Source of the DNA: Shigella phage ESh2
Direction: 5' to 3' (one strand)
Sequence record: ON528716
DNA length: 39,818 nucleotides
Part shown: positions 6,378 to 36,326 of the stretch, in pieces
Numbering within the stretch: position 1 is the stretch's first letter
Layout of the letters: each line of letters begins with the position of its first letter
Made by a program: the position numbers and the translations under genes
The notes under the pieces: generated by a model
What the model was told of the DNA's origin: nothing
The model's input: the letters and a program-made list of their open reading frames with translations, nothing else
Databases searched by the model: none

Positions 6378-6400
6378 TAATACGACTCACTATAGAGGGG
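6378..6400 (+). promoter_or_regulatory. T7 RNAP promoter phi1.1A
   Basis: taatacgactcactatagagggg. Confidence 0.85.
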
Positions 6401-6408
6401 TGGGGCAA

Positions 6409-6445
6409 ACTCAAGGTCATTCGTAAGAGTGGCCTTTTATGATTG
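6409..6445 (+). promoter_or_regulatory. RNase III processing hairpin R1.1
   Basis: ctcaaggtcattcgtaagagtggccttttatgat. Confidence 0.6.
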
Positions 6446-6458
6446 ACCTTCTTCCGGT

Positions 6459-6481
6459 TAATACGACTCACTATAGGGAAG
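6459..6481 (+). promoter_or_regulatory. T7 RNAP promoter phi1.1B
   Basis: taatacgactcactatagggaag. Confidence 0.85.
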
Positions 6482-6559
6482 ACCTTAAGGTTTAACTTTA
6501 AGACCCTTAAGTGTTAATTAAAGATTTAAATTAAAGACTACTAAGAGAGGACTTTAAGT

Positions 6560-6688
6560 ATGCGTAACTTCGAAAAGATGACCAAACGTTCTAACCGTAA
6601 CGCTCATGACTTCGAGGCAACCAAAGGTCGCAAGCTGAATAAGACCAAGCGCGACCGCTCGCATAAACGTAGCTGGGAGGGTCAGTAA
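6560..6688 (+). CDS. 1.1: gene 1.1 protein (42 aa)
   Basis: SD gagagg then ATG; MRNFEKMTKRSNRNAHDFEATKGRKLNKTKRDRSHKRSWEGQ matches T7 gp1.1. Confidence 0.85.
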   Translation: MRNFEKMTKRSNRNAHDFEATKGRKLNKTKRDRSHKRSWEGQ

Positions 6689-6689
6689 G

Positions 6690-6947
6690 ATGGGACGTTT
6701 ATACAGTGGGAACTTGAATGACTTCAAGGATGCTTGCAACAGGCTCTACCAGTTAGACTTTGCTGTTATTTGTGATGAATGGTACGATGCTTACAAACGC
6801 CTTGCGTGTATGCGTCTACGCGTAGAGGACAGGGCTGGAAACCTGATTGATGCCAATACGTTCTGCCACCACGATGAAGACGTCTTGTACAATACGTGTA
6901 CTGAATGGCTGAACCGTATGTACGACCAGTTGAAGGACTGGAAGTAA
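6690..6947 (+). CDS. 1.2: inhibitor of host dGTP triphosphohydrolase
   Basis: 85 aa; MGRLYSGNL...DQLKDWK homologous to T7 gp1.2. Confidence 0.9.
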   Translation: MGRLYSGNLNDFKDACNRLYQLDFAVICDEWYDAYKRLACMRLRVEDRAGNLIDANTFCHHDEDVLYNTCTEWLNRMYDQLKDWK

Positions 6948-6967
6948 TACGACTCACTAAAGGGACA
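6945..6967 (+). promoter_or_regulatory. T7 RNAP promoter phi1.3
   Basis: taatacgactcactaaagggaca. Confidence 0.8.
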
Positions 6968-6970
6968 ATG

Positions 6971-7003
6971 CTTAAGGTCGCTCATTGAGTGGCCTTAGTC
7001 ATT
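6971..7003 (+). promoter_or_regulatory. RNase III processing hairpin R1.3
   Basis: cttaaggtcgctcattgagtggccttagtcat. Confidence 0.55.
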
Positions 7004-8400: not shown

Positions 8401-8661
8401 ATGTTTCGACTTCATTACAACAAAAGCATTAAGAATTTCACGATTCGCCGTGCTGACCGTTCAATCGTATGTGCGAGCGAGAGCCGAGCTAAGTTACCTC
8501 TTATTGGTAACACAGTTCCTTTGGCACCGAGCGTCCACATCATTATCACCCGTGGTGACTTTGAGAAAGCAATAGACAAGAAACGTCCGGTTCTTAGTGT
8601 GGCAGTGACCCGCTTCCCGTTCGTCCGTCTGTTACTCAAACGAATCAAGGAGGTGTTCTAA
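8401..8661 (+). CDS. 1.6: gene 1.6 protein
   Basis: 86 aa; [27 protein letters not shown]... matches T7 gp1.6. Confidence 0.9.
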
Positions 8662-8997
8662 TGTCTCGTATCATGCAAAAATGTGATAGCCCTACCTACT
8701 GTGAAGCCTGTAATGGTGACGACCGCTTTCCTCATGTGGGTAAGCCTATAGTCGATAAACCACAAGATATAGAGGGTGTGCGCACTCCGAGCCACTACAT
8801 GTTGTTTGACGACATTGAGGCTATCGAAGTGATTGCCCGTTCAATGACTCGTGAGCAGTTCAAAGGGTACTGCTTAGGGAACGTCTTAAAATACAGACTA
8901 CGTGCTGGCAAGAAGTCAGAACTGGCTTACTTAGAGAAAGACCTAGCGAAAGCAGACTTCTATAAAGAACTCTTTGAGAAACATAAGGATAAATGTT

Positions 8998-9005
<8 letters not shown>
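8661..9005 (+). CDS. 1.7: gene 1.7 protein (nucleotide kinase homolog), N-terminally shortened relative to T7
   Basis: 114 aa; C-terminal part ...PSHYMLFDDIEAIEVIARSMTREQFKGYC...KHKDKCYA matches T7 gp1.7 C-terminus; T7 protein recalled as about 196 aa. Confidence 0.8.
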
Positions 9006-9359
<354 letters not shown>

Positions 9360-9362
<3 letters not shown>

Positions 9363-9382
9363 TACGACTCACTATTAGGGAG
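9360..9382 (+). promoter_or_regulatory. T7 RNAP promoter phi2.5
   Basis: taatacgactcactattagggag. Confidence 0.8.
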
Positions 9383-9431
9383 GGAAGACTCCCTTTGAGA
9401 AACCAAACGAAACCTAAAGGAGATTAACATT

Positions 9432-10130
9432 ATGGCTAAGAAGATTTTCACCTCTGCGCTGGGTACTGCTGAACCTTACGCTTACCTCTCCAAGCCGGAC
9501 TACGGTAACGAAGAGCGTGGCTTTGGGAACCCTCGCGGTGTCTACAAAGTTGACCTGACTATTCCCAACAAAGACCCGCGCTGTCAACGCATGGTCGATG
9601 AAATCGTGAAGTGTCACGAAGAGGCTTATGCTGCTGCCGTTGAGGAATACGAAGCGAATCCACCTGCTGTAGCTCGTGGTAAGAAACCGCTGAAACCGTA
9701 TGAAGGCGACATGCCATTCTTCGATAACGGTGACGGCACGACTACCTTTAAGTTCAAATGCTACGCGTCTTTCCAAGACAAGAAGACCAAAGAGACCAAG
9801 CACATCAATCTGGTTGTGGTTGACTCCAAGGGTAAGAAGATGGAAGACGTTCCGATTATCGGTGGTGGCTCTAAGCTGAAAGTCAAATACTCTCTGGTTC
9901 CGTACAAGTGGAACACTGCTGTAGGTGCAAGCGTTAAGCTGCAACTGGAATCCGTGATGCTGGTCGAACTGGCTACCTTTGGTGGCGGTGAAGACGATTG
10001 GGCTGACGAAGTTGAAGAGAACGGCTATGTTGCCTCTGGTTCTGCCAAAGCGAGCAAACCACGCGACGAAGAAAGCTGGGACGAAGACGACGAAGAGTCC
10101 GATGAAGTAGACGAAGACGGAGATTTCTAA
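9432..10130 (+). CDS. 2.5: single-stranded DNA-binding protein with acidic C-terminal tail
   Basis: 232 aa; MAKKIFTSALGTAEPYAYLSKPDYGNEERGF... ends DEDDEESDEVDEDGDF; matches T7 gp2.5. Confidence 0.97.
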   Translation: MAKKIFTSALGTAEPYAYLSKPDYGNEERGFGNPRGVYKVDLTIPNKDPRCQRMVDEIVKCHEEAYAAAVEEYEANPPAVARGKKPLKPYEGDMPFFDNGDGTTTFKFKCYASFQDKKTKETKHINLVVVDSKGKKMEDVPIIGGGSKLKVKYSLVPYKWNTAVGASVKLQLESVMLVELATFGGGEDDWADEVEENGYVASGSAKASKPRDEESWDEDDEESDEVDEDGDF

Positions 10131-10586
10131 GTGGCTGGCGCATACGCTGCGCGTGGTATCAGAAAGGTCGGGACATTCCGTTCCGGCCTAGAAGATAAGG
10201 TCTCTAAGCAGCTAGAGAGTAAAGGTATACAGTTTGACTACGAGCAGTGGAAGATTCCATACGTAGTCCCTGCGAGTAATCATACCTATTGTCCAGATTT
10301 TCTACTGCCCAATGGTATCTTTATCGAGACCAAAGGACTATGGGAAAGTGATGACCGCAAGAAGCACCTACTTATTCGCGAGCAGATGCCTGAGCTAGAT
10401 ATACGACTTGTGTTCTCAAGCTCCCGAACAAAGCTCTACAAAGGGTCTCCAACGTCCTATGCAGAATTTTGTGAAAAGCACGGCATCAAGTTTGCTGATA
10501 AGCTGATTCCAGTTGAGTGGCTCAAAGAGCCTAAACGGGAGGTGCCATTCGATAAGCTCAAACAGTCAAAAGGAGCTAAGAAGTGA
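10131..10586 (+). CDS. 3: endonuclease I (Holliday junction resolvase)
   Basis: 151 aa from GTG at 10131 immediately after the 2.5 stop; MAGAYAARGIRKVGTFRSGLEDKVSKQLESKG...PDFLLPNGIFIETKG matches T7 gp3. Confidence 0.9.
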   Translation: MAGAYAARGIRKVGTFRSGLEDKVSKQLESKGIQFDYEQWKIPYVVPASNHTYCPDFLLPNGIFIETKGLWESDDRKKHLLIREQMPELDIRLVFSSSRTKLYKGSPTSYAEFCEKHGIKFADKLIPVEWLKEPKREVPFDKLKQSKGAKK

Positions 10587-11041
10587 TTCATCCAAAACTC
10601 TTGATAGAGCCGACCGATTCCTGTATTGAATGGACAGGCGCGTTCCACAAGAACGGGTACGGAGTAATCTCTTTGAATCGCAAAGTAGCTGCCGAACTAG
10701 GAATACCTAGGGTGCAATTTGTACACAGGGCAAGCTACATGCAGCATAAAGGAACTATAGGTGATGGACTTGTTGTTCGTCACCTGTGTCACAACAGAAA
10801 GTGTTTCAACCCAGCTCACTTGGAAGTCGGCACTCAGTACGATAACTTCGAAGATAGTGTTAAGGTTGGTCGCAACAAACGTAAACTGCTTGATGAGGAC
10901 GTTAAATCAATTAGAGAGTCCACAATGAGTAACCGCAAGTTAGCCAAGCTATACGGTGTTAGCTCTACAACGATCTTCCACATCAAGCACAACAACAAGT
11001 GGAGGAATTTAAATGGCACGAGTACAATTCAAACAGCGTGA
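10583..11041 (+). CDS. HNH homing endonuclease (free-standing), inserted between genes 3 and 3.5
   Basis: 152 aa from GTG 10583 (SD aggag 7 nt upstream); motifs EWTGAFHKNGYG, HRASY, RHLCHNRKCFNPAHLEVGTQYDN; C-terminal region SNRKLAKLYGVSSTTIFHI resembles a helix-turn-helix. Confidence 0.8.
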   Translation: MIHPKLLIEPTDSCIEWTGAFHKNGYGVISLNRKVAAELGIPRVQFVHRASYMQHKGTIGDGLVVRHLCHNRKCFNPAHLEVGTQYDNFEDSVKVGRNKRKLLDEDVKSIRESTMSNRKLAKLYGVSSTTIFHIKHNNKWRNLNGTSTIQTA

Positions 11042-11468
11042 AAGCACCGATGCAATCTTCGTTCATTGCTCAGCAACAAAACCTAATATGAATTGGGGTG
11101 TACGTGAGATTCGCCAGTCTCATAAAGAGCGTGGGTTCCTAGATGTGGGATACCACTTTATCATCAAGCGCGATGGTACTGTAGAGGAAGGCCGAGATGA
11201 GATGGCTGTAGGCTCTCACGCTAAGGACTACAATCACAACTCAATCGGTGTCTGCCTTGTGGGTGGTATCGACGATAAGGGTAAGTTTGACGCTAACTTT
11301 ACGCCAGCCCAAATGCAATCCCTTCGATCACTGCTTGTCACACTGCTGGCTAAATACGAAGGCGCTGTGCTTCGCGCACATCATGATGTTGCACCTAAGG
11401 CTTGCCCATCGTTCGACCTTAAGCGTTGGTGGGAGAAGAATGAACTTGTAACTTCTGACCGTGGATAA
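11013..11468 (+). CDS. 3.5: lysozyme (N-acetylmuramoyl-L-alanine amidase) / RNAP inhibitor
   Basis: 151 aa; MARVQFKQRESTDAIFVHCSATKPN... matches T7 lysozyme; start and SD lie inside the 3' end of the HNH ORF. Confidence 0.95.
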   Translation: MARVQFKQRESTDAIFVHCSATKPNMNWGVREIRQSHKERGFLDVGYHFIIKRDGTVEEGRDEMAVGSHAKDYNHNSIGVCLVGGIDDKGKFDANFTPAQMQSLRSLLVTLLAKYEGAVLRAHHDVAPKACPSFDLKRWWEKNELVTSDRG

Positions 11469-11469
11469 T

Positions 11470-11492
11470 TAATTGAACTCACTAAAGGGAGA
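11470..11492 (+). promoter_or_regulatory. T7 RNAP promoter phi3.8
   Basis: taattgaactcactaaagggaga. Confidence 0.8.
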
Positions 11493-11512
11493 CCACAACG
11501 GTTTCCCTTTGT
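11487..11512 (+). promoter_or_regulatory. 5' leader hairpin / RNase III site R3.8
   Basis: gggagaccacaacggtttccc hairpin; same sequence recurs at the phi10 leader (22511). Confidence 0.6.
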
Positions 11513-11524
11513 TCGCAATGTTGA

Positions 11525-13285
<1,761 letters not shown>

Positions 13286-13298
<13 letters not shown>

Positions 13299-13498
13299 TT
13301 AAGAAATTAGGCCAACTGCTGGTTCGTATGTATAACGTGGAAGCCAAGCGTCTGAACGATGAGGCTCGTAAAGAGGCCACACAGTCACGCGCTCTAGCGA
13401 TTCGCTCCAACGAACTGGCTGACAGTGCATCCACTAAAGTTACCGAAGCTGCCCGTGTAGCAAACCAAGCTCAACAGCTTTCCAAATTCTTTGAGTAA
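13286..13498 (+). CDS. 4.3: gene 4.3 protein
   Basis: 70 aa; MFKLIKKLGQLLVRMYNVEAKRLNDEARKE... matches T7 gp4.3. Confidence 0.9.
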
Positions 13499-13517
13499 TC
13501 AAACAGGAGAAACCAAC

Positions 13518-13787
13518 ATGTCTAACGTAGCTGAAACTATCCGTCTATCCGATACCGCTGACCAGTGGAACCGTCGAGTCCACATCAACGTTCGCAACGG
13601 TAAGGCGACTATGGTTTACCGATGGAAGGACTCTAAGTCCTCTAAGAATCACACTCAGCGTATGACGTTGACAGATGAGCAAGCACTGCGTCTGGTCAAT
13701 GCGCTTACCAAAGCTGCCGTGACAGCAATTCATGAAGCTGGTCGCGTCAACGAAGCTATGGCTATCCTCGACAAGATTGGTAGCTAA
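13518..13787 (+). CDS. 4.5: gene 4.5 protein
   Basis: SD aggag 8 nt upstream of ATG 13518; MSNVAETIRLSDTADQWNRRVHINVRNGKATMVYRWKD... matches T7 gp4.5. Confidence 0.9.
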   Translation: MSNVAETIRLSDTADQWNRRVHINVRNGKATMVYRWKDSKSSKNHTQRMTLTDEQALRLVNALTKAAVTAIHEAGRVNEAMAILDKIGS

Positions 13788-13797
13788 GAGTGGTATA

Positions 13798-13830
13798 CTC
13801 AAGGCCGCCAAAGTGGTGGCCTTCATGAAT
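13798..13830 (+). promoter_or_regulatory. RNase III processing hairpin R4.7
   Basis: ctcaaggccgccaaagtggtggccttcatgaat. Confidence 0.6.
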
Positions 13831-13831
13831 A

Positions 13832-13854
13832 CTATTCGACTCACTATAGGAGAT
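13832..13854 (+). promoter_or_regulatory. T7 RNAP promoter phi4.7
   Basis: ctattcgactcactataggagat. Confidence 0.75.
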
Positions 13855-13860
13855 ATTACC

Positions 13861-14292
13861 ATGCGTGACCCTAAAGTTATCCAAGCAGAAATCGCTAAGT
13901 TGGAAGCTGAACTGGAGGACGTTAAGTACCATGAGGCCAAGACTCGCTCCGCTGTTCACATCTTGAAGAACTTAGGTTGGACCTGGACAAGACAGACTGG
14001 CTGGAAGAAGCCAAAGACAGTCTGGCTGGAAGAAACAGAAGTTAACAAGCTGAGCCACAATGTGTTCTATAAGGACACTATGACCCGCATCAAGGCTGGT
14101 GATTGGGTTAAGGTTGACATGGGAGTTGTTGGTGGGTAGGGCTACGTCCGCTCAGTTGGTGGCAAATATGCACAAGTGTCATACATCACAGGTGTTACTC
14201 CACGCGGTGCAATCGTTGCCGATAAGACCAGCATGATTCACACAGGTTTCTTGACAGTCGTTTCATACGAAGAGATTGTTAAGTCACGATAA
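13861..14292 (+). pseudogene. 4.7: gene 4.7 interrupted by an in-frame amber (TAG) codon at 14137-14139; truncated product 92 aa (13861..14139)
   Basis: Reading frame continues after the TAG for 50 more sense codons (GYVRSVGGKYAQVSYITGVTPRGAIVADKTSMIHTGFLTVVSYEEIVKSR) that match the T7 gp4.7 C-terminus; T7 has TAT (Tyr) where this window has TAG. Confidence 0.8.
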
Positions 14293-14311
14293 TCAAATAG
14301 GAGAAATCAAT

Positions 14312-16426
14312 ATGATCGTTTCTGACATCGAAGCTAACGCCCTCTTAGAGAGCGTCACTAAGTTCCACTGCGGGGTTATCTACGACTACTCCACCGCTGA
14401 GTACGTAAGCTACCGACCGAGTGACTTCGGTGCGTATCTGGATGCGCTGGAAGCCGAGGTTGCACGAGGCGGTCTTATTGTGTTCCACAACGGTCACAAG
14501 TATGACGTTCCTGCATTGACCAAACTGGCAAAGCTACAATTGAACCGAGAGTTCCACCTTCCTCGCGAGAACTGTATTGACACCCTAGTTCTGTCACGCT
14601 TGATTCACTCTAACCTCAAGGACACCGATATGGGTCTCCTGCGCTCAGGTAAGTTGCCGGGGAACCGCTTTGGGTCTCACGCTTTGGAGGCGTGGGGTTA
14701 TCGCTTAGGCGAGATGAAGGGTGAATACAAAGACGACTTTAAGCGTATGCTTGAAGAGCGAGGTGAAGAATACGTTGATGGAATGGAGTGGTGGAACTTC
14801 AACGAAGAGATGATGTCCTATAACGTTCAGGACGTTGTGGTCACTAAAACCCTCCTTGAGAAGCTACTCTCTGACAAACATTACTTCCCTCCTGAGATTG
14901 ACTTTACGGACGTAGGACACACTACGTTCTGGTCAGAATCCATTGAGGCCGTTGACATTGAACATCGCGCTGCATGGCTACTTGCTAAGCAAGAGCGTAA
15001 TGGGTTCCCGTTTGACACGAAAGCAATCGAAGAGTTGTACGTAGAGTTAGCTGCTCGACGCTCTGAGTTGCTACGTAAATTGACCGAAACGTTCGGCTCA
15101 TGGTATCAACCTAAGGGTGGCACTGAGATGTTCTGCCATCCACGGACAGGTAAGCCACTGCCTAAATACCCTCGCATTAAGACACCTAAAGTCGGAGGCA
15201 TCTTTAAGAAGCCTAAGAACAAGGCACAGCGAGAGGGACTAGAGCCGTGCGAACTGGATACCCGTGAGTACGTTGCTGGTGCTCCGTATACTCCGGTAGA
15301 GCACGTAGTGTTTAACCCTTCGTCTCGTGACCACATTCAGAAGAAACTTCAAGAGGCTGGATGGGTCCCGACTAAGTTCACCGATAATGGTGCTCCTGTG
15401 GTGGACGATGAGGTGCTAGAAGGAGTACGTGTAGATGACCCTGAGAAGCAGGCTGCTATCGACCTCATTAAAGAGTACTTGATGATTCAGAAGCGAATCG
15501 GACAGTCTGCTGAGGGAGACAAAGCATGGCTTCGTTATGTTGCTGAGGACGGTAAGATTCATGGTTCTGTTAATCCCAACGGCGCTGTTACTGGTCGTGC
15601 CACCCATGCTTTCCCTAACCTAGCACAGGTACCCGGTGTCCGTTCTCCTTATGGGGAGCAGTGTCGCGCTGCTTTTGGCGCTGAGCATCATTTGGATGGA
15701 CTAACTGGTAAGCCTTGGGTTCAGGCTGGCATCGACGCATCCGGTCTGGAGCTACGCTGCTTGGCCCACTTCATGGCTCGCTTTGATAACGGTGAGTATG
15801 CTCACGAGATTCTTAATGGCGACATCCACACTAAGAACCAGATTGCTGCCGAATTGCCTACCCGCGATAACGCTAAGACGTTCATCTATGGGTTCCTCTA
15901 CGGTGCTGGTGACGAGAAGATTGGACAGATTGTTGGTGCTGGTAAAGAGCGCGGTAAGGAACTCAAGAAGAAATTCCTTGAGAACACCCCAGCTATTGCA
16001 GCACTCCGTGAGTCTATCCAACAGACACTTGTGGAGTCCTCTCAGTGGGTAGCTGGTGAGCAACAAGTCAAGTGGAAACGCCGCTGGATTAAGGGTCTGG
16101 ATGGTCGTAAGGTACACGTCCGTAGTCCTCATGCTGCCTTGAATACCCTACTGCAATCTGCTGGTGCTCTCATCTGCAAACTGTGGATTATCAAGACCGA
16201 AGAGATGCTCGTAGAGAAAGGCTTGAAGCACGGCTGGGATGGGGACTTTGCGTACATGGCATGGGTGCATGACGAAATCCAAGTAGGTTGCCGTACCGAA
16301 GAGATTGCTCAGGCGGTCATTGAGACCGCACAAGAAGCAATGCGCTGGGTTGGAGACCACTGGAACTTCCGGTGTCTTCTTGATACCGAGGGTAAGATTG
16401 GTCCTAACTGGGCCGTATGTCACTGA
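14312..16426 (+). CDS. 5: DNA polymerase (family A, with 3'-5' exonuclease and thioredoxin-binding domain)
   Basis: 704 aa from ATG 14312 (SD aggag); [26 protein letters not shown]... near-identical to T7 gp5. Confidence 0.98.
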
Positions 16427-16445
16427 TTCTATAGGAGAAATTATT

Positions 16446-16745
16446 ATGGCTATGACAAAGAAATTTAAAGTATCCTTTGACGTTACCGCAAAGATGCCGT
16501 CTGACGTTCAGGCAATCTTAGAGAAAGACATACTGCACTTGTGTAAGCAGGTAGGCTCAGGTGCGATTGTCCCAGATGGTAAACAGAAGGAAATGATTGT
16601 CCAGTTCCTGACACACGGTATGGAAGGCGTGATGGCATTCGTAGTGCGTACATCATTCCGTGAGGCCATCAAGGACATGCACGAAGAGTATTCCGATAAG
16701 GACTGCTTCAAGTTATCTCCTGCAACAGTACGGGAGGTGTTCTGA
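16446..16745 (+). CDS. 5.5: gene 5.5 protein (H-NS binding)
   Basis: 99 aa; MAMTKKFKVSFDVTAKMPSDVQAILEKD... matches T7 gp5.5. Confidence 0.9.
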   Translation: MAMTKKFKVSFDVTAKMPSDVQAILEKDILHLCKQVGSGAIVPDGKQKEMIVQFLTHGMEGVMAFVVRTSFREAIKDMHEEYSDKDCFKLSPATVREVF

Positions 16746-16954
16746 TGTCTGACTACCTGAAAGTACTGCAAGCAATCAAAAGTTGCCCTAAGACTTTCCA
16801 GTCCAACTATGTGCGGAACAATGCGAGCCTCGTAGCGGAGGCCGCTTCCCGTGGTCACATCTCATGTCTGACTACGAGTGGACGTAACGGTGGCGCTTGG
16901 GAAATCACTGCTTCCGGTACTCGCTTTCTGAAACGAATGGGAGGGTGTGTCTGA
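16745..16954 (+). CDS. 5.7: gene 5.7 protein
   Basis: 69 aa; MSDYLKVLQAIKSCPKTFQSNYVRNNASLVAEAASRGH... matches T7 gp5.7. Confidence 0.9.
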   Translation: MSDYLKVLQAIKSCPKTFQSNYVRNNASLVAEAASRGHISCLTTSGRNGGAWEITASGTRFLKRMGGCV

Positions 16955-17112
16955 TGGTACGTGACACTGTAACAATTCCGCGTGATGTGTGGAACGATAT
17001 GCAGGGCTACATCGACTCTCTGGAGCGTGAGAACGATAGCCTTAAGAATCAACTGATGGAAGCTGACGAATACGTAGCGGAACTAGAGGAGAAACTTAAT
17101 GGCACTTCTTGA
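16954..17112 (+). CDS. 5.9: RecBCD inhibitor (gp5.9)
   Basis: 52 aa; MVRDTVTIPRDVWNDMQGYIDSLERENDSLKNQLMEADEYVAELEEKLNGTS; matches T7 gp5.9. Confidence 0.85.
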   Translation: MVRDTVTIPRDVWNDMQGYIDSLERENDSLKNQLMEADEYVAELEEKLNGTS

Positions 17113-18001
17113 CCTTAAACAATTCTATGAGTTACGTGAAGGTTGTGACGACAAAGGTATCCTTGTGATGGACGGTGACTGGCTGGTCTTCCAAGCGATG
17201 AGTGCCGCTGAGTTTGATGCCTCATGGGAGGAAGAGATTTGGCACCGCTGCTGTGACCACGCTAAGGCCCGTCAGATTCTTGAGGATTCCATTAAGTCCT
17301 ACGAGACACGCAAGAAGGCTTGGATAGGCGCTCCGATTGTCCTTGCGTTCACCGATAGTGTTAACTGGCGTAAAGAACTGGTTGACCCGAACTACAAGGC
17401 TAACCGTAAGGCAACTAAGAAACCTGTAGGTTACTTTGAGTTCCTTGATGCTCTCTTTGAGCGCGAAGAGTTCTATTGCATCCGTGAGCCTATGCTTGAG
17501 GGTGATGACGTTATGGGAGTTATTGCTTCCAATCCGTCTGCATTTGGTGCCCGTAAGGCTGTAATCATCTCGTGCGATAAGGACTTTAAGACCATCCCTA
17601 ACTGTGACTTCTTGTGGTGTACCACTGGTAACATCCTGACTCAGACCGAAGAGTCCGCTGACTGGTGGCACCTCTTCCAGACAATCAAAGGTGACATCAC
17701 AGATGGTTACTCAGGGATTGCCGGATGGGGTGATACCGCAGAGGACTTCTTGAATAACCCGTTCATAGTCGAGCCTAAAACGTCTGTGCTTAAGTCTGGT
17801 AAGAACAAAGGCAAAGAGGTTACTAAATGGGTTAAACGTGACCCTGAGCCTCATGAGACGCTTTGGGACTGCATTAAGTCCATTGGTGCTAAGGCCGGTA
17901 TGACCGAAGAGGATATTATCAAGCAGGGCCAGATGGCACGCATCCTGCGGTTCAACGAGTACAACTTTATCGACAAGGAGATTTACCTGTGGAGGCCGTA
18001 G
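17099..18001 (+). CDS. 6: 5'-3' exonuclease
   Basis: 300 aa; MALLDLKQFYELREGCDDKGILVMDGDWLVF... matches T7 gp6. Confidence 0.98.
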   Translation: MALLDLKQFYELREGCDDKGILVMDGDWLVFQAMSAAEFDASWEEEIWHRCCDHAKARQILEDSIKSYETRKKAWIGAPIVLAFTDSVNWRKELVDPNYKANRKATKKPVGYFEFLDALFEREEFYCIREPMLEGDDVMGVIASNPSAFGARKAVIISCDKDFKTIPNCDFLWCTTGNILTQTEESADWWHLFQTIKGDITDGYSGIAGWGDTAEDFLNNPFIVEPKTSVLKSGKNKGKEVTKWVKRDPEPHETLWDCIKSIGAKAGMTEEDIIKQGQMARILRFNEYNFIDKEIYLWRP

Positions 18002-18102
18002 CGTATATTGGCATTGGTCTTTGTGTTCTCGGAATGGGCCTCATTGCATGGGGCATTTGGGACTTAGCCAGAATAATCAAGTCGTTACACGAAACTAAGT
18101 GA
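17989..18102 (+). CDS. 6.3: gene 6.3 small protein (37 aa)
   Basis: GTG start with SD aaggag 8 nt upstream; MEAVAYIGIGLCVLGMGLIAWGIWDLARIIKSLHETK; length matches T7 gp6.3; overlaps end of gene 6. Confidence 0.5.
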   Translation: MEAVAYIGIGLCVLGMGLIAWGIWDLARIIKSLHETK

Positions 18103-18106
18103 TAAA

Positions 18107-18160
18107 CTCAAGGCCCTAAATTAATACGACTCACTATAGGGAGATAGGGGCCTTTATGGT
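18107..18160 (+). promoter_or_regulatory. RNase III hairpin R6.5 enclosing promoter phi6.5
   Basis: ctcaaggcccta ... taggggcctttatggt arms flank the promoter. Confidence 0.6.
18122..18144 (+). promoter_or_regulatory. T7 RNAP promoter phi6.5
   Basis: taatacgactcactatagggaga, exact consensus. Confidence 0.9.
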
Positions 18161-18198
18161 TATTACTTTAAGATTTAACTCTAAGAGGAATCTTTATT

Positions 18199-18453
18199 AT
18201 GCTAACACCTATTAACCATTTACTTAAGAACCCTAACGATATTCCAGACGTGCCTCGTGCAACCGCTGAGTATCTACAGGTTCGATTCAACTACGCGTAC
18301 CTCGAAGCGTCTGGTCATATAGGATTTATGCGCGCTAATGGTTGTAGTGAAGCCCACATCTTGGGTTTCATTCAAGGCCTACAGTATGCCTCTAACATCA
18401 TTGACGAGATTGAGTTACGCAAGGAACAACTAAGAGATGATGGGGAGGATTGA
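18199..18453 (+). CDS. 6.5: gene 6.5 protein
   Basis: 84 aa; [30 protein letters not shown]... matches T7 gp6.5. Confidence 0.9.
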
Positions 18454-18457
18454 CCTT

Positions 18458-18724
18458 ATGTGTTTCTCACCGAAAGTTAAAGTTCCGAAGATGGATACCA
18501 ATCAGATTCGAGCCGTTGAGCCAGCGCCACTGACACAAGAAGTGTCAAGCGTGGAGTTCGGTGGGTCTTCTGATGAGACGGATACCGAAGGCACCGAAGT
18601 GTCTGGACGCAAAGACCTAAAGGTCGAACGCGATGATTCCGTAGCGAAGTCTAAAGCCAGTGGTACTGGTTCCGCTCGTATGAAATCTTCAATCCGTAAG
18701 TCCGCATTTGGAGGCAAGAAGTGA
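18458..18724 (+). CDS. 6.7: gene 6.7 virion protein
   Basis: 88 aa from ATG 18458 (SD ggggagg); MCFSPKVKVPKMDTNQIRAVEPAPLTQE... matches T7 gp6.7. Confidence 0.85.
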   Translation: MCFSPKVKVPKMDTNQIRAVEPAPLTQEVSSVEFGGSSDETDTEGTEVSGRKDLKVERDDSVAKSKASGTGSARMKSSIRKSAFGGKK

Positions 18725-19125
18725 TGTCTGAGTTCACATGTGTGGAGGCCAAGAGTCGCTTCCGTGCAATCCGGTGGACTGTGGAACACCTTGGGTTGCC
18801 TAAAGGATTCGAAGGGCACTTTGTGGGCTACAGCCTCTACGTTGACGAAGTAATGGACATGTCTGGGTGCCGTGAAGAGTACATTCTGGACTCTACAGGA
18901 GAACATGTAGCGTACTTCGCGTGGTGCGTAAGCTGTGACATTCACCACAAAGGAGACATTCTGGATGTAACGTCCGTTGTCATTAATCCTGAGGCAGACT
19001 CTAAGGGCTTACAGCGATTCCTAGCGAAACGCTTTAAGTACCTTGCAGAACTCCACGATTGCGATTGGGTGTCCCGCTGTAAACATGAAGGCGAGACAAT
19101 GCGTGTATACTTTAAGGAGGTATAA
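18724..19125 (+). CDS. 7: gene 7 protein (host range / virion assembly)
   Basis: 133 aa; MSEFTCVEAKSRFRAIRWTVEHLGLPKGFEGHF... matches T7 gp7. Confidence 0.9.
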   Translation: MSEFTCVEAKSRFRAIRWTVEHLGLPKGFEGHFVGYSLYVDEVMDMSGCREEYILDSTGEHVAYFAWCVSCDIHHKGDILDVTSVVINPEADSKGLQRFLAKRFKYLAELHDCDWVSRCKHEGETMRVYFKEV

Positions 19126-19128
19126 GTT

Positions 19129-19449
19129 ATGGGTAAGAAAGTCAAGAAGGTAGTTAAGAAAGTAACTAAGCCCGTTGAGAAAGCCGTAAAGAAAGTTACC
19201 AAGGAAGTGACTCGTCCTATTAAACAGGTTGCTGGTGCGCTGGCGGGTGGTGCTGGTGAAGCACAAGTAGTTGAAGTTCCACAACCAACAGCTGCTGCTA
19301 CTCCTGCTGCACAAATTGTTGACGTACCTGAGAAAGAGGTTTCCACTGATGACGAAGCACAGACCGAAAGCGGACGCAAGAAAGCTCGTTCTGAAGGTAA
19401 GAAGTCCTTGAGTGTAGCCCGTAGCTCCGGTGGGGGTATAAATATATGA
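19129..19449 (+). CDS. 7.3: gene 7.3 tail-associated protein (Lys-rich N-terminus)
   Basis: 106 aa; MGKKVKKVVKKVTKPVEKAVKKVTKE... ending SVARSSGGGINI; matches T7 gp7.3 with a 7-aa PTAAATP insertion. Confidence 0.9.
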   Translation: MGKKVKKVVKKVTKPVEKAVKKVTKEVTRPIKQVAGALAGGAGEAQVVEVPQPTAAATPAAQIVDVPEKEVSTDDEAQTESGRKKARSEGKKSLSVARSSGGGINI

Positions 19450-19847
19450 CAGATTGTATCCTTCATACTGGTTGCACGACTAAAGGAGGGTACGGTCTCG
19501 TTGGTTATAAAGGTAAGACACAGCTGGCTCACAGGGTATCATACATCAAATCAAAGGGTGAGATACCGACTGGTATGGTCATAATGCATACCTGTGACAA
19601 CCCTCTGTGTATCAACCCTGAACATCTTGTAGCTGGAACTCAGCGTGATAACCGTATGGACTGTGTAACTAAAGGTAGAGCGAACGTATCCAGAGGTGAA
19701 GAGCATTATTGTGCCAAGCTCACTGAGGCCATTGTGCGTGAGATTCGTGCATCAAATTTAACCAACACTGAGTTGTCAGAAGTGTATGGCATCCATAGGA
19801 GAACCATTAGTGACGCTCGATGTGGTAAGACATGGAGACATATTTAA
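19446..19847 (+). CDS. 7.7: HNH homing endonuclease at the gene 7.7 position
   Basis: 133 aa; TKGGYGLVGYKGKTQLAHRVSY...HTCDNPLCINPEHLVAGTQRDN HNH motif; C-terminal NTELSEVYGIHRRTISD HTH-like; stop overlaps gene 8 start by 1 nt. Confidence 0.85.
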   Translation: MTDCILHTGCTTKGGYGLVGYKGKTQLAHRVSYIKSKGEIPTGMVIMHTCDNPLCINPEHLVAGTQRDNRMDCVTKGRANVSRGEEHYCAKLTEAIVREIRASNLTNTELSEVYGIHRRTISDARCGKTWRHI

Positions 19848-21457
19848 TGGCTGAGAAACGAACAGGACTTGCGGAGGATGGCGCAAAGTCTGTCTATGAG
19901 CGTTTAAAGAACGACCGCGCGCCTTATGAGACGCGTGCCCAGAATTGCGCTCAATATACCATCCCATCATTGTTCCCTAAGGACTCCGATAACGCCTCTA
20001 CAGACTACACAACTCCGTGGCAAGCTGTGGGTGCTCGGGGTCTAAACAATCTAGCATCTAAGCTCATGCTGGCCCTGTTCCCGATGCAGACTTGGATGCG
20101 ACTTACTATATCTGAATATGAAGCAAAGCAGCTACTGAGCGACCCCGATGGACTCGCTAAGGTCGATGAGGGTCTCTCAATGGTAGAGCGTATCATCATG
20201 AACTACATTGAGTCAAACAGCTACCGCGTGACTCTCTTTGAGGCTCTCAAGCAGTTAGTCGTAGCTGGTAACGTCCTGCTGTACCTACCGGAACCGGAAG
20301 GGTCAAACTACAATCCCATGAAGCTGTACCGATTGTCTTCTTATGTGGTCCAACGAGACGCATTCGGCAACGTTCTGCAAATGGTGACTCGTGACCAAAT
20401 AGCTTTCGGTGCTCTACCTGAGGACATCCGTAAGGCTGTAGAAGGTCAAGGTGGTGAGAAGAAACCTGATGAGACCATTGATGTGTACACTCACATCTAC
20501 TTGGACGAAGAGTCAGACGAATACCTCCGCTATGAAGAGGTTGAAGGTATGGAGATACAAGGCTCCGATGGGTCTTACCCTAAAGATGCTTGCCCATACA
20601 TCCCTATTCGTATGGTTCGTCTGGATGGTGAATCCTACGGTCGTTCGTACATTGAGGAATACTTAGGTGACTTACGGTCCCTTGAGAATCTCCAAGAGGC
20701 TATCGTCAAGATGTCCATGATTAGCTCTAAGGTTATCGGCTTAGTGAATCCTGCTGGTATCACCCAGCCACGCCGACTGACCAAAGCTCAGACTGGTGAC
20801 TTCGTTACGGGTCGTCCAGAAGACATCTCGTTCCTCCAACTGGAGAAGCAAGCAGACTTTACTGTAGCCAAGGCTGTCAGTGACGCTATTGAGGCTCGCC
20901 TTTCGTTTGCCTTTATGTTGAACTCTGCGGTTCAGCGCACAGGTGAACGAGTGACCGCTGAAGAGATTCGGTATGTCGCTTCTGAACTTGAAGATACTTT
21001 AGGCGGCGTCTACTCTATCCTTTCTCAAGAATTACAATTGCCTCTGGTACGAGTGCTCTTGAAGCAACTACAAGCCACGCAACAGATTCCTGAGTTACCT
21101 AAGGAAGCCGTAGAGCCAACCATTAGTACAGGTCTGGAAGCAATTGGTCGAGGACAAGACCTTGATAAGCTGGAGCGTTGTGTCGCTGCGTGGGCTGCTC
21201 TTGCTCCTATGCGTGATGACCCTGACATCAACCTTGCTATGATTAAGTTGCGCATTGCTAACGCCATCGGTATTGACACTTCTGGTATCCTTCTTACCGA
21301 AGAACAGAAGCAACAGAAGATGGCTCAACAGTCTATGCAAATGGGTATGGATAGTGGTGCTGCTGCGCTTGGTCAAGGTATGGCTGCACAGGCTACGGCT
21401 TCACCTGAGGCTATGGCTGCTGCTGCTGATTCCGTAGGTTTACAGCCGGGCATTTAA
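19847..21457 (+). CDS. 8: head-tail connector (portal) protein
   Basis: 536 aa from ATG 19847 (SD ggaga); MAEKRTGLAEDGAKSVYERLKNDRAPYETRAQ... near-identical to T7 gp8. Confidence 0.98.
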   Translation: MAEKRTGLAEDGAKSVYERLKNDRAPYETRAQNCAQYTIPSLFPKDSDNASTDYTTPWQAVGARGLNNLASKLMLALFPMQTWMRLTISEYEAKQLLSDPDGLAKVDEGLSMVERIIMNYIESNSYRVTLFEALKQLVVAGNVLLYLPEPEGSNYNPMKLYRLSSYVVQRDAFGNVLQMVTRDQIAFGALPEDIRKAVEGQGGEKKPDETIDVYTHIYLDEESDEYLRYEEVEGMEIQGSDGSYPKDACPYIPIRMVRLDGESYGRSYIEEYLGDLRSLENLQEAIVKMSMISSKVIGLVNPAGITQPRRLTKAQTGDFVTGRPEDISFLQLEKQADFTVAKAVSDAIEARLSFAFMLNSAVQRTGERVTAEEIRYVASELEDTLGGVYSILSQELQLPLVRVLLKQLQATQQIPELPKEAVEPTISTGLEAIGRGQDLDKLERCVAAWAALAPMRDDPDINLAMIKLRIANAIGIDTSGILLTEEQKQQKMAQQSMQMGMDSGAAALGQGMAAQATASPEAMAAAADSVGLQPGI

Positions 21458-24443: not shown

Positions 24444-26831
24444 ATGGCACTCATTAGCCAATCAATCAAGAACTTGAAGGGTGGTATCAGCCAACAGCCT
24501 GACATCCTTCGTTATCCAGACCAAGGGTCACGCCAAGTTAACGGTTGGTCTTCGGAGACCGAGGGCCTCCAAAAGCGTCCACCTCTGGTCTTCCTTAAGA
24601 CCCTAGGAGGAAGTGGTGACTTAGGGACAGCGCCTTACGTCCACCTGATTAACCGTGATGAAAACGAACAGTATTACGCTGTGTTCACTGGTACTGGAAT
24701 CCGTGTGTTTGACCTTGCTGGTAACGAAAAGCAGGTACGTTACCCAACTGATGGGTCCTCATACATCAACACTGCAAACCCAAGGAATGACCTGAGGATG
24801 GTCACAGTGGCTGACTACACCTTCATCGTCAACAGGAATGTCCGTGTCACGCGAAATACCAACGCAGTGAACCTCGCAGGATTTAACCCCAAGAAGGACG
24901 CATTAATCAACGTTCGTGGTGGTCAGTATGGTCGCACCCTACAGATTATGATTAACGGTGGTTTACAAGCCTCCTATCAGATTCCTGATGGTTCACAGCC
25001 AGCACACGTTAATAACACGGACGCTCAGTGGTTAGCAGAAGAGTTGGCTCGCCAGTGTAGAGCAAATGCTCCGGGATGGGCATTCAATGTTGGGCAGGGT
25101 TTTATCCACATCATAGCACCTGCTGGTCAACAGATTGATTCCCTGATGACGAAGGATGGCTATGCTGACCAGTTGATTAACCCAGTTACTCACTACGCTC
25201 AGTCATTCTCTAAGTTGCCACCTAACGCTCCTGACGGGTACATGGTGAAAATCGTAGGGGATTCTTCCAAGTCTGCTGACCAGTACTACGTTCGCTATGA
25301 CGCTACGCGTAAAGTCTGGGTTGAAACATTAGGCTGGAATGTTAACAATCAGCTTCTTTATGAAACGATGCCTCATGCACTGGTACGCGCTTCTGACGGT
25401 AACTTTGAGTTCAGGTGGATTGAGTGGAGTCCTAAAACCTGTGGTGATGACGACACAAACCCGTGGCCTTCCTTCATGGACTCCACAATAAACGATGTGT
25501 TCTTCTTCCGTAACCGTTTGGGTTTCCTTAGTGGTGAAAATATCATCCTGAGTAGAACCGCTAAGTACTTCAACTTCTACCCTGCGTCAATCGCAAACTT
25601 GAGCGACGATGACCCTATCGACGTAGCCGTGAGTACCAACCGAATCGCAATCCTTAAGTACGCCGTTCCGTTCTCTGAGGAGTTACTCATCTGGTCCGAT
25701 GAAGCACAATTTGTCCTGACTGCTTCCGGTACTCTCACGTCGAAGTCAGTTGAGTTGAACCTAACGACTCAGTTTGACGTACAGGACCGAGCGAGACCTT
25801 ATGGGATTGGTCGCAATGTCTACTTTACTAGTCCGAGGTCCAGCTTCACGTCCATCCACAAATATTACGCTGTGCAGGACGTAAGTTCCGTTAAGAACGC
25901 TGAGGACATTACAGCACACGTTCCTAACTATATCCCTAATGGTGTGTTCAGTATCTGCGGTAGTGGTACGGAAAACTTCTGTTCTGTACTATCTCATGGG
26001 GACCCAAGTAAAATCTTCATCTACAAATTCCTGTACCTGAACGAAGAGTTGAGACAACAGTCGTGGTCTCATTGGGACTTTGGGGAAAACGTGCAGGTTC
26101 TAGCTTGTCAGAGTATCAACTCAGATATGTACGTTATTCTCCGTAATGAGTTCAATACGTTCCTAGCTAAAATCTCTTTCACTAAGAACGCCATTGACTT
26201 ACGAGGCGAACCTTACCGCGCCTTTATGGACATGAAGATTAGATACACGATTCCTCGTGGCACATACAACGATGATACATACGAAACTTCCATCCACATA
26301 CCAACCGTCTATAACGCCAACTTTGGGAGGGGCAAAATCACTGTACTGGAACCTGATGGTAAGATAACCGTATTTGAGCAACCAACGTCTGGGTGGAACA
26401 GTGACCCTTGGCTGAGACTCAGTGGTAACTTAGAGGGACGAACGGTATACATCGGGTTCAACATTAACTTCGTCTATGAGTTCTCTAAGTTCCTCATCAA
26501 GCAGACTGCCGACGATGGGTCTACCTCCACGGAAGACATTGGTCGCTTGCAGTTACGCCGAGCGTGGGTTAACTACGAGGAATCTGGTACGTTCGATATT
26601 TATGTTGAGAACCAATCATCCAACTGGAAGTATACGATGGCTGGTGCACGATTAGGCTCTAACGCCCTGAGGGCTGGGAGATTGAACTTAGGGACAGGAC
26701 AATACCGTTTCCCTGTGGTGGGTAACGCCAAGTTCAATACCGTTACCATCTTGTCCGATGAGACTACCCCGCTGAACATCATTGGGTGTGGCTGGGAAGG
26801 TAACTACTTACGGAGAAGTTCCGGTATTTAA
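24444..26831 (+). CDS. 12: tail tubular protein B (nozzle)
   Basis: 795 aa; MALISQSIKNLKGGISQQPDILRYPDQGSRQVNGW... matches T7 gp12. Confidence 0.97.
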   Translation: MALISQSIKNLKGGISQQPDILRYPDQGSRQVNGWSSETEGLQKRPPLVFLKTLGGSGDLGTAPYVHLINRDENEQYYAVFTGTGIRVFDLAGNEKQVRYPTDGSSYINTANPRNDLRMVTVADYTFIVNRNVRVTRNTNAVNLAGFNPKKDALINVRGGQYGRTLQIMINGGLQASYQIPDGSQPAHVNNTDAQWLAEELARQCRANAPGWAFNVGQGFIHIIAPAGQQIDSLMTKDGYADQLINPVTHYAQSFSKLPPNAPDGYMVKIVGDSSKSADQYYVRYDATRKVWVETLGWNVNNQLLYETMPHALVRASDGNFEFRWIEWSPKTCGDDDTNPWPSFMDSTINDVFFFRNRLGFLSGENIILSRTAKYFNFYPASIANLSDDDPIDVAVSTNRIAILKYAVPFSEELLIWSDEAQFVLTASGTLTSKSVELNLTTQFDVQDRARPYGIGRNVYFTSPRSSFTSIHKYYAVQDVSSVKNAEDITAHVPNYIPNGVFSICGSGTENFCSVLSHGDPSKIFIYKFLYLNEELRQQSWSHWDFGENVQVLACQSINSDMYVILRNEFNTFLAKISFTKNAIDLRGEPYRAFMDMKIRYTIPRGTYNDDTYETSIHIPTVYNANFGRGKITVLEPDGKITVFEQPTSGWNSDPWLRLSGNLEGRTVYIGFNINFVYEFSKFLIKQTADDGSTSTEDIGRLQLRRAWVNYEESGTFDIYVENQSSNWKYTMAGARLGSNALRAGRLNLGTGQYRFPVVGNAKFNTVTILSDETTPLNIIGCGWEGNYLRRSSGI

Positions 26832-26861
26832 TTAAATGTTCTCCCTGTGGTGGATCGAATT

Positions 26862-26884
26862 TAATACGACTCACTATAGGGAGA
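26862..26884 (+). promoter_or_regulatory. T7 RNAP promoter phi13
   Basis: taatacgactcactatagggaga, exact consensus. Confidence 0.9.
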
Positions 26885-26911
26885 ACAATACGACTACGGG
26901 AGGGTTTTCTT

Positions 26912-27328
26912 ATGATGATTATAAGACCTACTAAAAGTACAGACTTTGAGGTATTCACTCCGGCTCACCATGACATTCTTGAAGCTAAGGCTGCTGGTAT
27001 TGAGCCGAGTTTCCCTGATGCTTCCGAGTGTGTCACGCTGAGCCTCTATGGGTTCCCTCTAGCCATCGGTGGCAACTGTGGGGACCAATGCTGGTTCGTT
27101 ACGAGCGACCAAGTGTGGAGACTTAGTGGAAAAGCTAAGCGAGAGTTCCGTAAGTTAATCATGGAGTATCGCGATAAGATGCTTGAGAAGTATGATACTC
27201 TTTGGAATTACGTATGGGTAGGCAATACGTCCCACATTCGTTTCCTCAAGACTATCGGTGCGGTATTCCATGAAGAGTACACACGGGATGGTCAATTTCA
27301 ATTATTCACAATCACGAAAGGAGGATAA
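26912..27328 (+). CDS. 13: internal virion / core assembly protein gp13
   Basis: 138 aa; MMIIRPTKSTDFEVFTPAHHDILEAKAAGIEPSF... matches T7 gp13. Confidence 0.95.
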   Translation: MMIIRPTKSTDFEVFTPAHHDILEAKAAGIEPSFPDASECVTLSLYGFPLAIGGNCGDQCWFVTSDQVWRLSGKAKREFRKLIMEYRDKMLEKYDTLWNYVWVGNTSHIRFLKTIGAVFHEEYTRDGQFQLFTITKGG

Positions 27329-27332
27329 CCAT

Positions 27333-27923
27333 ATGTGTTGGGCAGCCGCAATTCCTATCGCTATAGCTGGCGCTCAGGCCATCAGTGGTCAGAACACTCA
27401 GGCCAAAATGATTGCCGCTCAGACCGCTGCTGGTCGTCGTCAAGCCTTTGAACTTATGAAGCAGACGAACATCCAGAATGCTGACCTATCGCTGCAAGCT
27501 CGAAGTAAACTTGAGGAAGCGTCCTCTGAGTTGACCGCTCAGAACATGCAGAAGGTACAAGCTCTTGGGTCTATCCGAGCGGCTATCGGAGAGAGTATGC
27601 TTGAAGGTTCCTCAATGGACCGCATTAAGCGAGTCACAGAAGGACAGTTCATTCGGGAAGCCAATATGGTAACGGAGAACTATCGCCGTGACTACCAAGC
27701 AATCTTCGCACAGCAACTTGGTGGCACTCAAAGTGCTGCGAGCCAGATTAGCGAAATCTATAAGGGCGAACAGAAGCAGAAGAGTAAGCTACAGATGGTT
27801 CTGGACCCACTGGCTATCATGGGGTCTTCCGCTGCGAGTGCTTACGCAGACGGTAAGTTCGACTCTAAGCCCACAACTAAGGCACCTATTGTTGCCGCTA
27901 AAGGAACCAAGACGGGGAGGTAA
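27333..27923 (+). CDS. 14: internal virion protein B (ejectosome, gp14)
   Basis: 196 aa from ATG 27333 (SD aaaggagg); MCWAAAIPIAIAGAQAISGQN... matches T7 gp14. Confidence 0.95.
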   Translation: MCWAAAIPIAIAGAQAISGQNTQAKMIAAQTAAGRRQAFELMKQTNIQNADLSLQARSKLEEASSELTAQNMQKVQALGSIRAAIGESMLEGSSMDRIKRVTEGQFIREANMVTENYRRDYQAIFAQQLGGTQSAASQISEIYKGEQKQKSKLQMVLDPLAIMGSSAASAYADGKFDSKPTTKAPIVAAKGTKTGR

Positions 27924-27929
27924 TTAGCT

Positions 27930-30173: not shown

Positions 30174-30199
30174 CTAAAGGCTACATAAGGAGGCCCTAA

Positions 30200-30616
30200 A
30201 TGAGTATCGTGGAGCGCATTAGGAATGATTCAATTGTTGATGACAATGGTTGTTGGCTCCCTAAGAGACCAATCAAAGGTTATCGTCACATTAGGATTGA
30301 TGGTGTGCTCCAACGTGCTCACAGGGTGATAGTGGGTGCTGGGAAGGATGACGTTGTATTACACCTGTGTGATGTACCCAGTTGTTGTAACCCTGAGCAT
30401 CTCCGAATAGGCACTCAATCAGACAACATGGTTGACATGCAATCTAAGCATAGACATCCGGGACGTAAATTGAGTGACGAGGATGTAATCTACATACTAA
30501 ACTCTGATGCCTCAGGCTATAGTCTAGCCAAGAAATTCAAAGTAACCAAAGAAGTAATCTATAGAATACGAAAAGGAGAGTACTATGGGCGTTTACGACA
30601 AGTCGAAACCAAGTGA
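30200..30616 (+). CDS. HNH homing endonuclease inserted between genes 15 and 16
   Basis: 138 aa; SD taaggagg; DDNGCWLPKRPIKGYRHI...AHRVIV...HLCDVPSCCNPEHLRIGTQSDN HNH motif; C-terminal SGYSLAKKFKVTKEVIYRIRKG HTH-like; 3' end overlaps gene 16 start by 32 nt. Confidence 0.85.
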   Translation: MSIVERIRNDSIVDDNGCWLPKRPIKGYRHIRIDGVLQRAHRVIVGAGKDDVVLHLCDVPSCCNPEHLRIGTQSDNMVDMQSKHRHPGRKLSDEDVIYILNSDASGYSLAKKFKVTKEVIYRIRKGEYYGRLRQVETK

Positions 30617-34541: not shown

Positions 34542-34561
34542 TACGACTCACTATAGGGAGA
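34539..34561 (+). promoter_or_regulatory. T7 RNAP promoter phi17
   Basis: taatacgactcactatagggaga, exact consensus. Confidence 0.9.
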
Positions 34562-36311: not shown

Positions 36312-36326
36312 TAGGAGGAGTATGGT

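Follow-up and report, generated by a model that had tools for sequence, protein, structure and literature searches.

T7 carries a small gene, 5.3, between its DNA polymerase gene (gene 5) and gene 5.5, where Shigella phage ESh2 has only 19 nucleotides; genes 2.8 and 3.8 of T7 are likewise missing from their positions. The question raised by this locus is whether ESh2 has lost the three genes or whether they are optional insertions that it does not carry. The window, i.e. the whole 39,818-nt stretch of DNA analysed, is a complete, circularly permuted T7-like genome, as judged by BLASTN against T7 (V01146.1), which aligns at 92.2% nucleotide identity over 91% of it. The gene order from 0.7 to 19.5 is that of T7; membership in Teseptimavirus was judged by this collinearity and by high nucleotide identity to T7. 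When ESh2 9000-20000 was compared with 50,697 phage records by megablast, only T7-group phages were returned, with Teseptimavirus records scoring best and none more than 95% identical. ESh2 is thus a Teseptimavirus-type genome with a set of free-standing nuclease cassettes unlike that of T7. ESh2 1-712 corresponds to T7 39238-39937 and ESh2 542-1467 to T7 1-927; the terminal repeat is thus present once, at about 542-712, and the physical genome ends are located inside the sequence rather than at its edges.

The unoccupied gene 5/5.5 site spans 16427-16445 (+ strand). Gene 5 (14312-16426, + strand) was located by TBLASTN with T7 gp5, with 98% amino acid identity over 704 residues; gp5 aligns to 14312-16423 and the TGA stop codon is at 16424-16426. 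The open reading frame as listed starts with a TTG at 14276, and the ATG equivalent to that of T7 is at 14312. Gene 5.5, encoding a homologue of the H-NS-binding protein (16446-16745, + strand), starts with the ATG at 16446 and matches T7 gp5.5 at 92% over 99 residues. The spacer between the two genes, TTCTATAGGAGAAATTATT, contains the ribosome-binding site of gene 5.5, with its Shine-Dalgarno sequence, and nothing else. In the BLASTN alignment, the 5.3 cassette of T7 (16468-16834) is placed at ESh2 16427-16429.

The other two junctions are equally compact. At the gene 2.5/3 junction (10128-10133, + strand), the TAA stop codon of 2.5 (10128-10130) abuts the GTG start codon of gene 3 (10131), and T7 gene 2.8 begins at the same TAAGTG at which ESh2 gene 3 starts (T7 9860-10278 against ESh2 10134-10155). 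The gene 3.5/4A interval (11469-11539, + strand) is 71 nt long and consists of promoter phi3.8 (TAATTGAACTCACTAAAGGGAGA, 11470-11492) and the gene 4 ribosome-binding site, followed by the gene 4A ATG at 11540; in T7, gene 3.8 is located here (T7 11213-11586 against ESh2 11520-11555). The initial annotation had placed the end of gene 5 at 16426 and the start of gene 5.5 at 16446, had described the 2.5/3 and phi3.8/4 pairs as contiguous and had placed small T7 genes at all three positions. All these coordinates hold, and the T7 annotation agrees. The alignments at the three junctions show neither direct repeats on the flanks nor anything else that would indicate a deletion mechanism.

Whole-genome BLASTN alignment with T7, one of the checks that had been proposed, breaks exactly over T7 genes 2.8, 3.8 and 5.3. 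Being a matter of presence or absence, the pattern raises no question of chance. TBLASTN matches of the three T7 proteins had been named as what would refute the absence. None is found for gp3.8 and gp5.3 (best E 1.1), but for gp2.8 this test is positive: it matches ESh2 at 30206-30601 (46% identity, E 1e-30), 19455-19829 (E 9e-22) and 10613-10987 (E 9e-21). These matches are paralogous HNH genes at other sites; gene 2.8 is absent from its own position. Because the best gp5.3 match has an E value of 1.1, the gap at its site is only 19 nt and collinearity accounts for the remaining stretches, ESh2 contains no member of the gp5.3 family (PDDEXK_5; phrog_5018).

The other ESh2 stretches that do not align with T7 are an S-adenosylmethionine lyase gene with a small neighbouring reading frame, a short gene 1.7, and a new gp17 tip with the reading frame following it. 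At 1465-2196, ESh2 has reading frames of 152 and 90 amino acids instead of T7 genes 0.3 (Ocr) and 0.4. The first product matches Pfam S-AdoMet_lyase at 147 bits, and we take it to be a T3-type gene 0.3 product; the second belongs to phrog_6500. Gene 1.7 (8661-9005) encodes 114 amino acids versus 196 in T7, with the DUF3310 domain kept and the N-terminal part missing or divergent. The C-terminal third of the tail fibre protein gp17 is unrelated to that of T7 (region 35604-36932), and an additional 201-residue reading frame follows it (36327-36932), matching Caudo_TAP and the phrog_136 tail-fibre assembly proteins. The latter is 92% identical at the amino acid level to reading frames of PGX1 and ESh6 annotated as a 175-residue "tail fiber protein", and runs about 26 codons further than annotated there, overlapping the holin start at 36913.

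Two observations concern the region just before the 5/5.5 site. Gene 4.7 (13861-14289) has an in-frame TAG at 14137-14139, at the position of Tyr85 (TAC) of T7, and a 24-bp imperfect tandem duplication near 14014-14037; its predicted product is 92 residues long versus about 143, and the 50 codons past the TAG are still at least 90% T7-like. In the DNA polymerase gene, about 250 bp (14750-15000) are 94% identical to T7, phiA1122, ESh6 and UFV01 and only 78-82% to PGX1 and JacobBurckhardt, so this stretch appears to be a mosaic boundary inside an essential gene.

What kind of genes T7 carries at the three positions was assessed with Pfam, using gathering cutoffs of 24.8 bits for HNH_3 and 26.1 bits for PDDEXK_5. 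The HNH_3 scores are 26.1 bits for gp2.8, 56 for gp3.8 and 49.8 for gp7.7. Genes 3.8 and 5.3 had both been taken to be HNH-like. This is right for 3.8 (HNH_3, E 3e-15) and wrong for 5.3: T7 gp5.3 matches PDDEXK_5 at 42.1 bits and not a single HNH model, and is thus a PD-(D/E)XK protein. The mistake probably stems from T3, in which an HNH protein goes by the name 5.3. T3 gp5.3 matches HNH_3 at 68 bits and is not homologous to its T7 namesake, and its PGX1 counterpart is also an HNH_3 protein. Two unrelated proteins encoded at one site hence share the name "gene 5.3", PDDEXK_5 in T7 (16483-16839) and HNH_3 in T3 (6669-6974) and PGX1 (13139-13444), a distinction that is useful for annotation.

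Three HNH genes are present in ESh2 itself. Their products score 40.7 (10583-11041), 47.0 (19446-19847) and 29.1 bits (30200-30616) against HNH_3, the last barely above the 24.8-bit cutoff, and all match phrog_59, "HNH endonuclease", with E values of 1e-19 to 2e-30. An HNH profile built from 15 such proteins was used to search all stop-to-stop segments of at least 30 residues. It found exactly these three genes in ESh2 and exactly 2.8, 3.8 and 7.7 in T7; no further HNH gene was detected in overlapping or antisense frames among the 630 ESh2 segments, the next best match having an E value above 0.1. The equal number that had been proposed for the two phages is therefore correct, at three each. 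The accompanying idea that the genes occupy different sites is correct only in part, as both phages have an HNH gene at 7.3/8, the two alleles being 47% identical, and the other sites differ.

An alignment of eight proteins shows invariant His41, His55, Cys57, Cys62, Asn64, His67 and Asn76 (numbering of the protein encoded between genes 15 and 16), and the reading frames are uninterrupted. The three ESh2 proteins also share a conserved C-terminal region, where helix-turn-helix-type Pfam matches stay below the cutoff. By BLASTP, all three belong to the gp2.8/gp7.7 subgroup and not to the gp3.8 type. Their genes are self-contained intergenic reading frames beside conserved genes, outside introns and inteins, with flanks collinear with T7. 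On sequence grounds, they can be assigned to the free-standing HNH_3-type homing endonuclease genes of T7-like phages. A preprint in which genes 2.8, 3.8 and 7.7 of T7 were deleted ("T7 delta-3HE") likewise treats them as three homing endonucleases (10.1101/2025.09.07.674715).

The first ESh2 gene, "3.3" (10583-11041, + strand), encodes 152 residues (HNH_3 E 1.8e-10; phrog_59) and is located between genes 3 and 3.5, with overlaps of 4 nt at the stop of gene 3 and 29 nt at the start of gene 3.5. Its nucleotide identity is 98.7-98.9% to PGX1 and JacobBurckhardt and 89.7% to the "protein 3.3" gene of phiA1122. It is linked to gene 3, encoding endonuclease I (10131-10586, + strand), which is about 74-76% identical to T7 at the nucleotide level and 96-99% to PGX1 and JacobBurckhardt. 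With 74% identity to T7, gene 3 was considered as a possible novel gene; this was rejected, as the close matches in PGX1 and JacobBurckhardt show the allele to be a known one. In a sliding profile, gene 3 and the 3.3 cassette are together 96-99.6% identical to these two phages, versus 89-92% genome-wide, and about 76% identical to T7.

The second gene, at the 7.7 site (19446-19847, + strand), was located by TBLASTN and encodes 133 residues (HNH_3 E 2e-12) with 47% amino acid identity to T7 gp7.7. This allele is shared only with ESh6 (96% nucleotide identity) and pO111 (94%), and the surrounding 7.3-7.7 tract is 96% identical to ESh6 in the sliding profile.

The third gene lies between genes 15 and 16 (30200-30616, + strand) and encodes 138 residues (HNH_3, 29.1 bits), the closest T7 protein being gp2.8 (46%). 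Its start codon is the ATG, with the same ribosome-binding site before it, at which gene 16 begins in T7 and the other genomes compared, six in all. At the 3' end it extends 32 nt into gene 16, which thereby acquires a new ribosome-binding site and has its first codons recoded. When its flanks are compared with the six-genome panel, no co-conversion tract is obvious, which speaks against the homing explanation. At the nucleotide level, megablast found no match to the gene in 50,697 phage records, all 180 matching records covering the flanks only, and an exact-pattern scan of IMG/VR found no match to the junction between gene 15 and the HNH gene. A protein-pattern scan of IMG/VR returned only distant HNH relatives, 28-50% identical over most of the protein, on unrelated contigs. 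The nearest annotated relatives are HNH genes of Klebsiella T7-like phages at the gene 15/16 site (55-59% amino acid identity).

Closer relatives are found in assemblies, as unnamed proteins. A 99%-identical protein is present at the same site in Logan assemblies, and an 8.6-kb Logan contig (DRR596577) is 93.6% identical at the nucleotide level to ESh2 26612-34882, with the same order of gene 15, HNH gene and gene 16; relatives with 70-80% amino acid identity occupy this site in more distant T7-like contigs (Logan/ENA assemblies). The 15/16 boundary is thus an established cassette site, the ESh2 gene being new only among deposited coliphage-type genomes. The DRR596577 contig also has an additional 65-residue reading frame of the Endonuclease_7 family between genes 13 and 14 (contig positions 835-1032), where ESh2 has no insert, so that 13/14 is a further site at which nuclease genes vary.

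To place the three junctions among T7 relatives, we compared ESh2 with five of them in full (phiA1122, JacobBurckhardt, ESh6, UFV01 and PGX1), with T7 and with part of T3. The 19-nt spacer between genes 5 and 5.5 is identical in phiA1122, JacobBurckhardt, ESh6 and UFV01, and the exact 29-nt junction is present in 11 IMG/VR T7-like contigs of 32-40 kb. Between genes 2.5 and 3 the gap is 0 nt in all six non-T7 phages of the comparison, T3 thus lacking 2.8 as well; only T7 has an interval there, of 400 nt and holding gene 2.8. JacobBurckhardt has the 71-nt 3.5/4A interval with a single base difference, and a 401-bp query across the 3.5/4 junction gave single-piece, insert-free matches in Pila, ESh1, UFV01, N30, HZ2R8, EG1 and others. 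Across the phage collection, many natural relatives match the ESh2 junction queries in this way. Sequences at least 95% identical to gp5.3, in turn, occur only in T7 records (57 of 100 matches in the whole phage collection), and more distant homologues are scattered over a few Klebsiella, Salmonella and Escherichia phages.

Like ESh2, JacobBurckhardt and UFV01 lack 2.8, 3.8 and 5.3 together. The unoccupied alleles at the three sites are the majority state among T7 relatives, and T7 is the exception for genes 2.8 and 5.3. The impression that ESh2 deviates from T7 is accurate insofar as three genes are absent, but within the genus it is usual for these junctions to be unoccupied. When occupied, the same site may hold different genes: the 5/5.5 site contains a PD-(D/E)XK gene in T7 and an HNH gene in T3 and PGX1, and the 3.5/4 site contains 3.8 in T7 and phiA1122 and another HNH gene in ESh6. 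Seven genomes have seven different sets of cassettes. The ESh2 pattern is therefore ordinary: the optional, selfish nuclease cassettes absent from it are absent from most T7 relatives as well, and it has three others at different sites.

The cassettes have a recurring architecture. Junction sequences show that they sit at, or overlap, the point where translation of the next gene starts. In the case of T7 gene 2.8 and of the ESh2 HNH gene between 15 and 16, the cassette takes over the ribosome-binding site and start codon of that gene. Its 3' end then reaches 20-32 nt into the downstream gene, for which it contains a new ribosome-binding site. Beside 2.8, 3.8 and the 15/16 HNH gene, the first codons of the downstream gene are altered, so that occupied and unoccupied genomes differ. 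Gene 3 starts with MAGYGAKG in occupied and MAGAYAARG in unoccupied genomes, gene 4A starts with MDNSHDSDSV in one state and with another ten-residue sequence in the other, and gene 16 starts with MGVYDKSKPS in ESh2 and MDKYDKNVPS in cassette-free genomes. The recoded starts of genes 3, 4A and 16 are consistent with protection of the target site.

Free-standing homing endonucleases of phages cut the cassette-free allele, and repair copies the cassette and its flanks. By analogy, in a mixed infection a nuclease of this kind would cut the cassette-free allele of a relative, and repair from the cassette-bearing genome would copy cassette and flanks across. Such homing would produce a sporadic, site-specific distribution and local patches of unusual identity around cassettes. 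The junction architecture, the recoded starts and the identity patches described above fit this established model. Where phages have exchanged genetic material, nuclease genes have been reported at the boundaries (PMC10448857), and the features of ESh2 agree with this. Very probably, T7 genes 2.8 and 3.8 (HNH) and 5.3 (PD-(D/E)XK) are optional, self-contained insertions, presumably mobile by homing, for which ESh2 has the unoccupied alleles, its own cassettes being at three other sites. The history of the three sites is one of two: either they were never invaded, or cassettes were lost through recombination with an unoccupied allele.

Secondary loss, in which an ancestor had 2.8, 3.8 and 5.3 and these were deleted as dispensable, is the alternative that comes closest, and we consider it improbable. 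Loss is possible: in several laboratory T7 records the 5/5.5 junction query aligns without a break over about 300-345 bp, and no 5.3 is annotated beneath. However, with the same 319-bp query these records are 85.5-85.9% identical to the ESh2 junction, versus 93.1% for standard T7. The ESh2 junctions are, base for base, those of several divergent natural isolates, and the 2.5/3 arrangement is the same even in T3, which belongs to a different genus. Unrelated cassettes at the same sites in different phages suggest instead that a conserved unoccupied site has received insertions more than once, and precise loss by recombination with an unoccupied allele amounts to the optional-insertion reading preferred here.

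A second alternative is functional compensation: selection, for instance for an anti-defence role, would maintain about three HNH proteins, so that three were lost and three gained elsewhere. The count of three in both ESh2 and T7 suits it, as does the report that catalytically dead T7 gp3.8 hinders the defence system GAPS4, and the construction of T7 without 2.8, 3.8 and 7.7 as a test for a competitive effect (10.1101/2025.09.07.674715). Yet the number of HNH-type genes among the five relatives ranges from one to four (UFV01 one, JacobBurckhardt two, PGX1 and ESh6 three each, phiA1122 four, the latter including 6383-6853, which falls below the Pfam HNH cutoff and was counted on its RefSeq annotation alone). 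The fourth nuclease cassette of T7, 5.3, has no counterpart in ESh2, and with such small numbers an equal count is often expected by chance. We thus see no evident meaning in the equal count, and rate compensation as very improbable. The same preprint suggests that T7 homing endonucleases also blunt GAPS4 defence, so a purely selfish view of them may be incomplete (10.1101/2025.09.07.674715). That the genes were dropped by misassembly or misannotation is next to inconceivable: circular permutation and a single terminal repeat copy are typical of assembler output, but isolates sequenced independently, and IMG/VR contigs, have these three junctions in identical form, and the reading frames on both sides of them are intact in ESh2.

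The unoccupied junctions of ESh2 are natural candidate targets of T7 gp2.8, gp3.8 and gp5.3. More tentatively, the HNH gene at 30200-30616 might be an active homing element that has newly entered coliphage-type T7 relatives, cutting the conserved cassette-free 15/16 junction of T7, phiA1122 and similar phages, with the recoded gene 16 start conferring self-immunity; we regard this as possible but somewhat doubtful. If true, the element would drag the adjacent internal-virion-protein genes into competitors in mixed infection. On the whole, ESh2 is one more case of the patchwork of homing-endonuclease cassettes for which T7-like phages are already well known. It confirms that the gene content of T7 relatives varies mainly through small nuclease cassettes and that T7 is atypical for 2.8 and 5.3. 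The one mildly new item is the HNH gene between genes 15 and 16 in a coliphage-type backbone, providing an example of a site annotated so far mainly in Klebsiella phages.

Among known systems, T7 (V01146.1) shares with ESh2 the collinear backbone, the number of HNH_3 genes (three) and the presence of an HNH gene at 7.3/8. It differs in having 2.8, 3.8 and 5.3, the last a PD-(D/E)XK gene with no ESh2 homologue, in lacking the HNH genes at 3.3 and 15/16, and in its 7.7 allele, which is 47% identical. Yersinia phage phiA1122 (NC_004777.1) is like ESh2 in lacking 2.8 and 5.3, with the same junction sequences, and in carrying an HNH "protein 3.3" between genes 3 and 3.5 (97% amino acid identity). 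Unlike ESh2, it keeps a T7-type 3.8 (100% amino acid identity) and a T7-type 7.7 (99%), has one more gene annotated as HNH-type, located in the 1.7 region, and has no 15/16 cassette.

For the 15/16 cassette, the comparison is with Klebsiella T7-like phages such as BUCT-3589 (OP256047.1), SH-Kp 152410 (NC_047908.1) and NK20. Judging from the record names, these are a different phage group with a different host, and their HNH genes have no similarity to that of ESh2 at the nucleotide level. All the same, they have an HNH gene upstream of gene 16, corresponding to the ESh2 site at 30200-30616. The matches are of the same length class, are 55-59% identical at the amino acid level and extend into what is annotated as gene 16, for an internal virion protein with an endolysin domain.

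Phage JacobBurckhardt (BASEL Bas65, MZ501078.1), with a genome identity of 92% over the 90% that aligns, differs from ESh2 in having Ocr instead of the S-adenosylmethionine lyase, in lacking the 7.7 gene and the 15/16 HNH gene, and in having an extra HNH gene (10709-11200) that follows the ligase gene. The 3.3 HNH gene is common to both phages, 100% identical at the amino acid and 98.9% at the nucleotide level, as are the 2.5/3, 3.5/4A (apart from one base) and 5/5.5 junctions, from which the three T7 genes are absent together.
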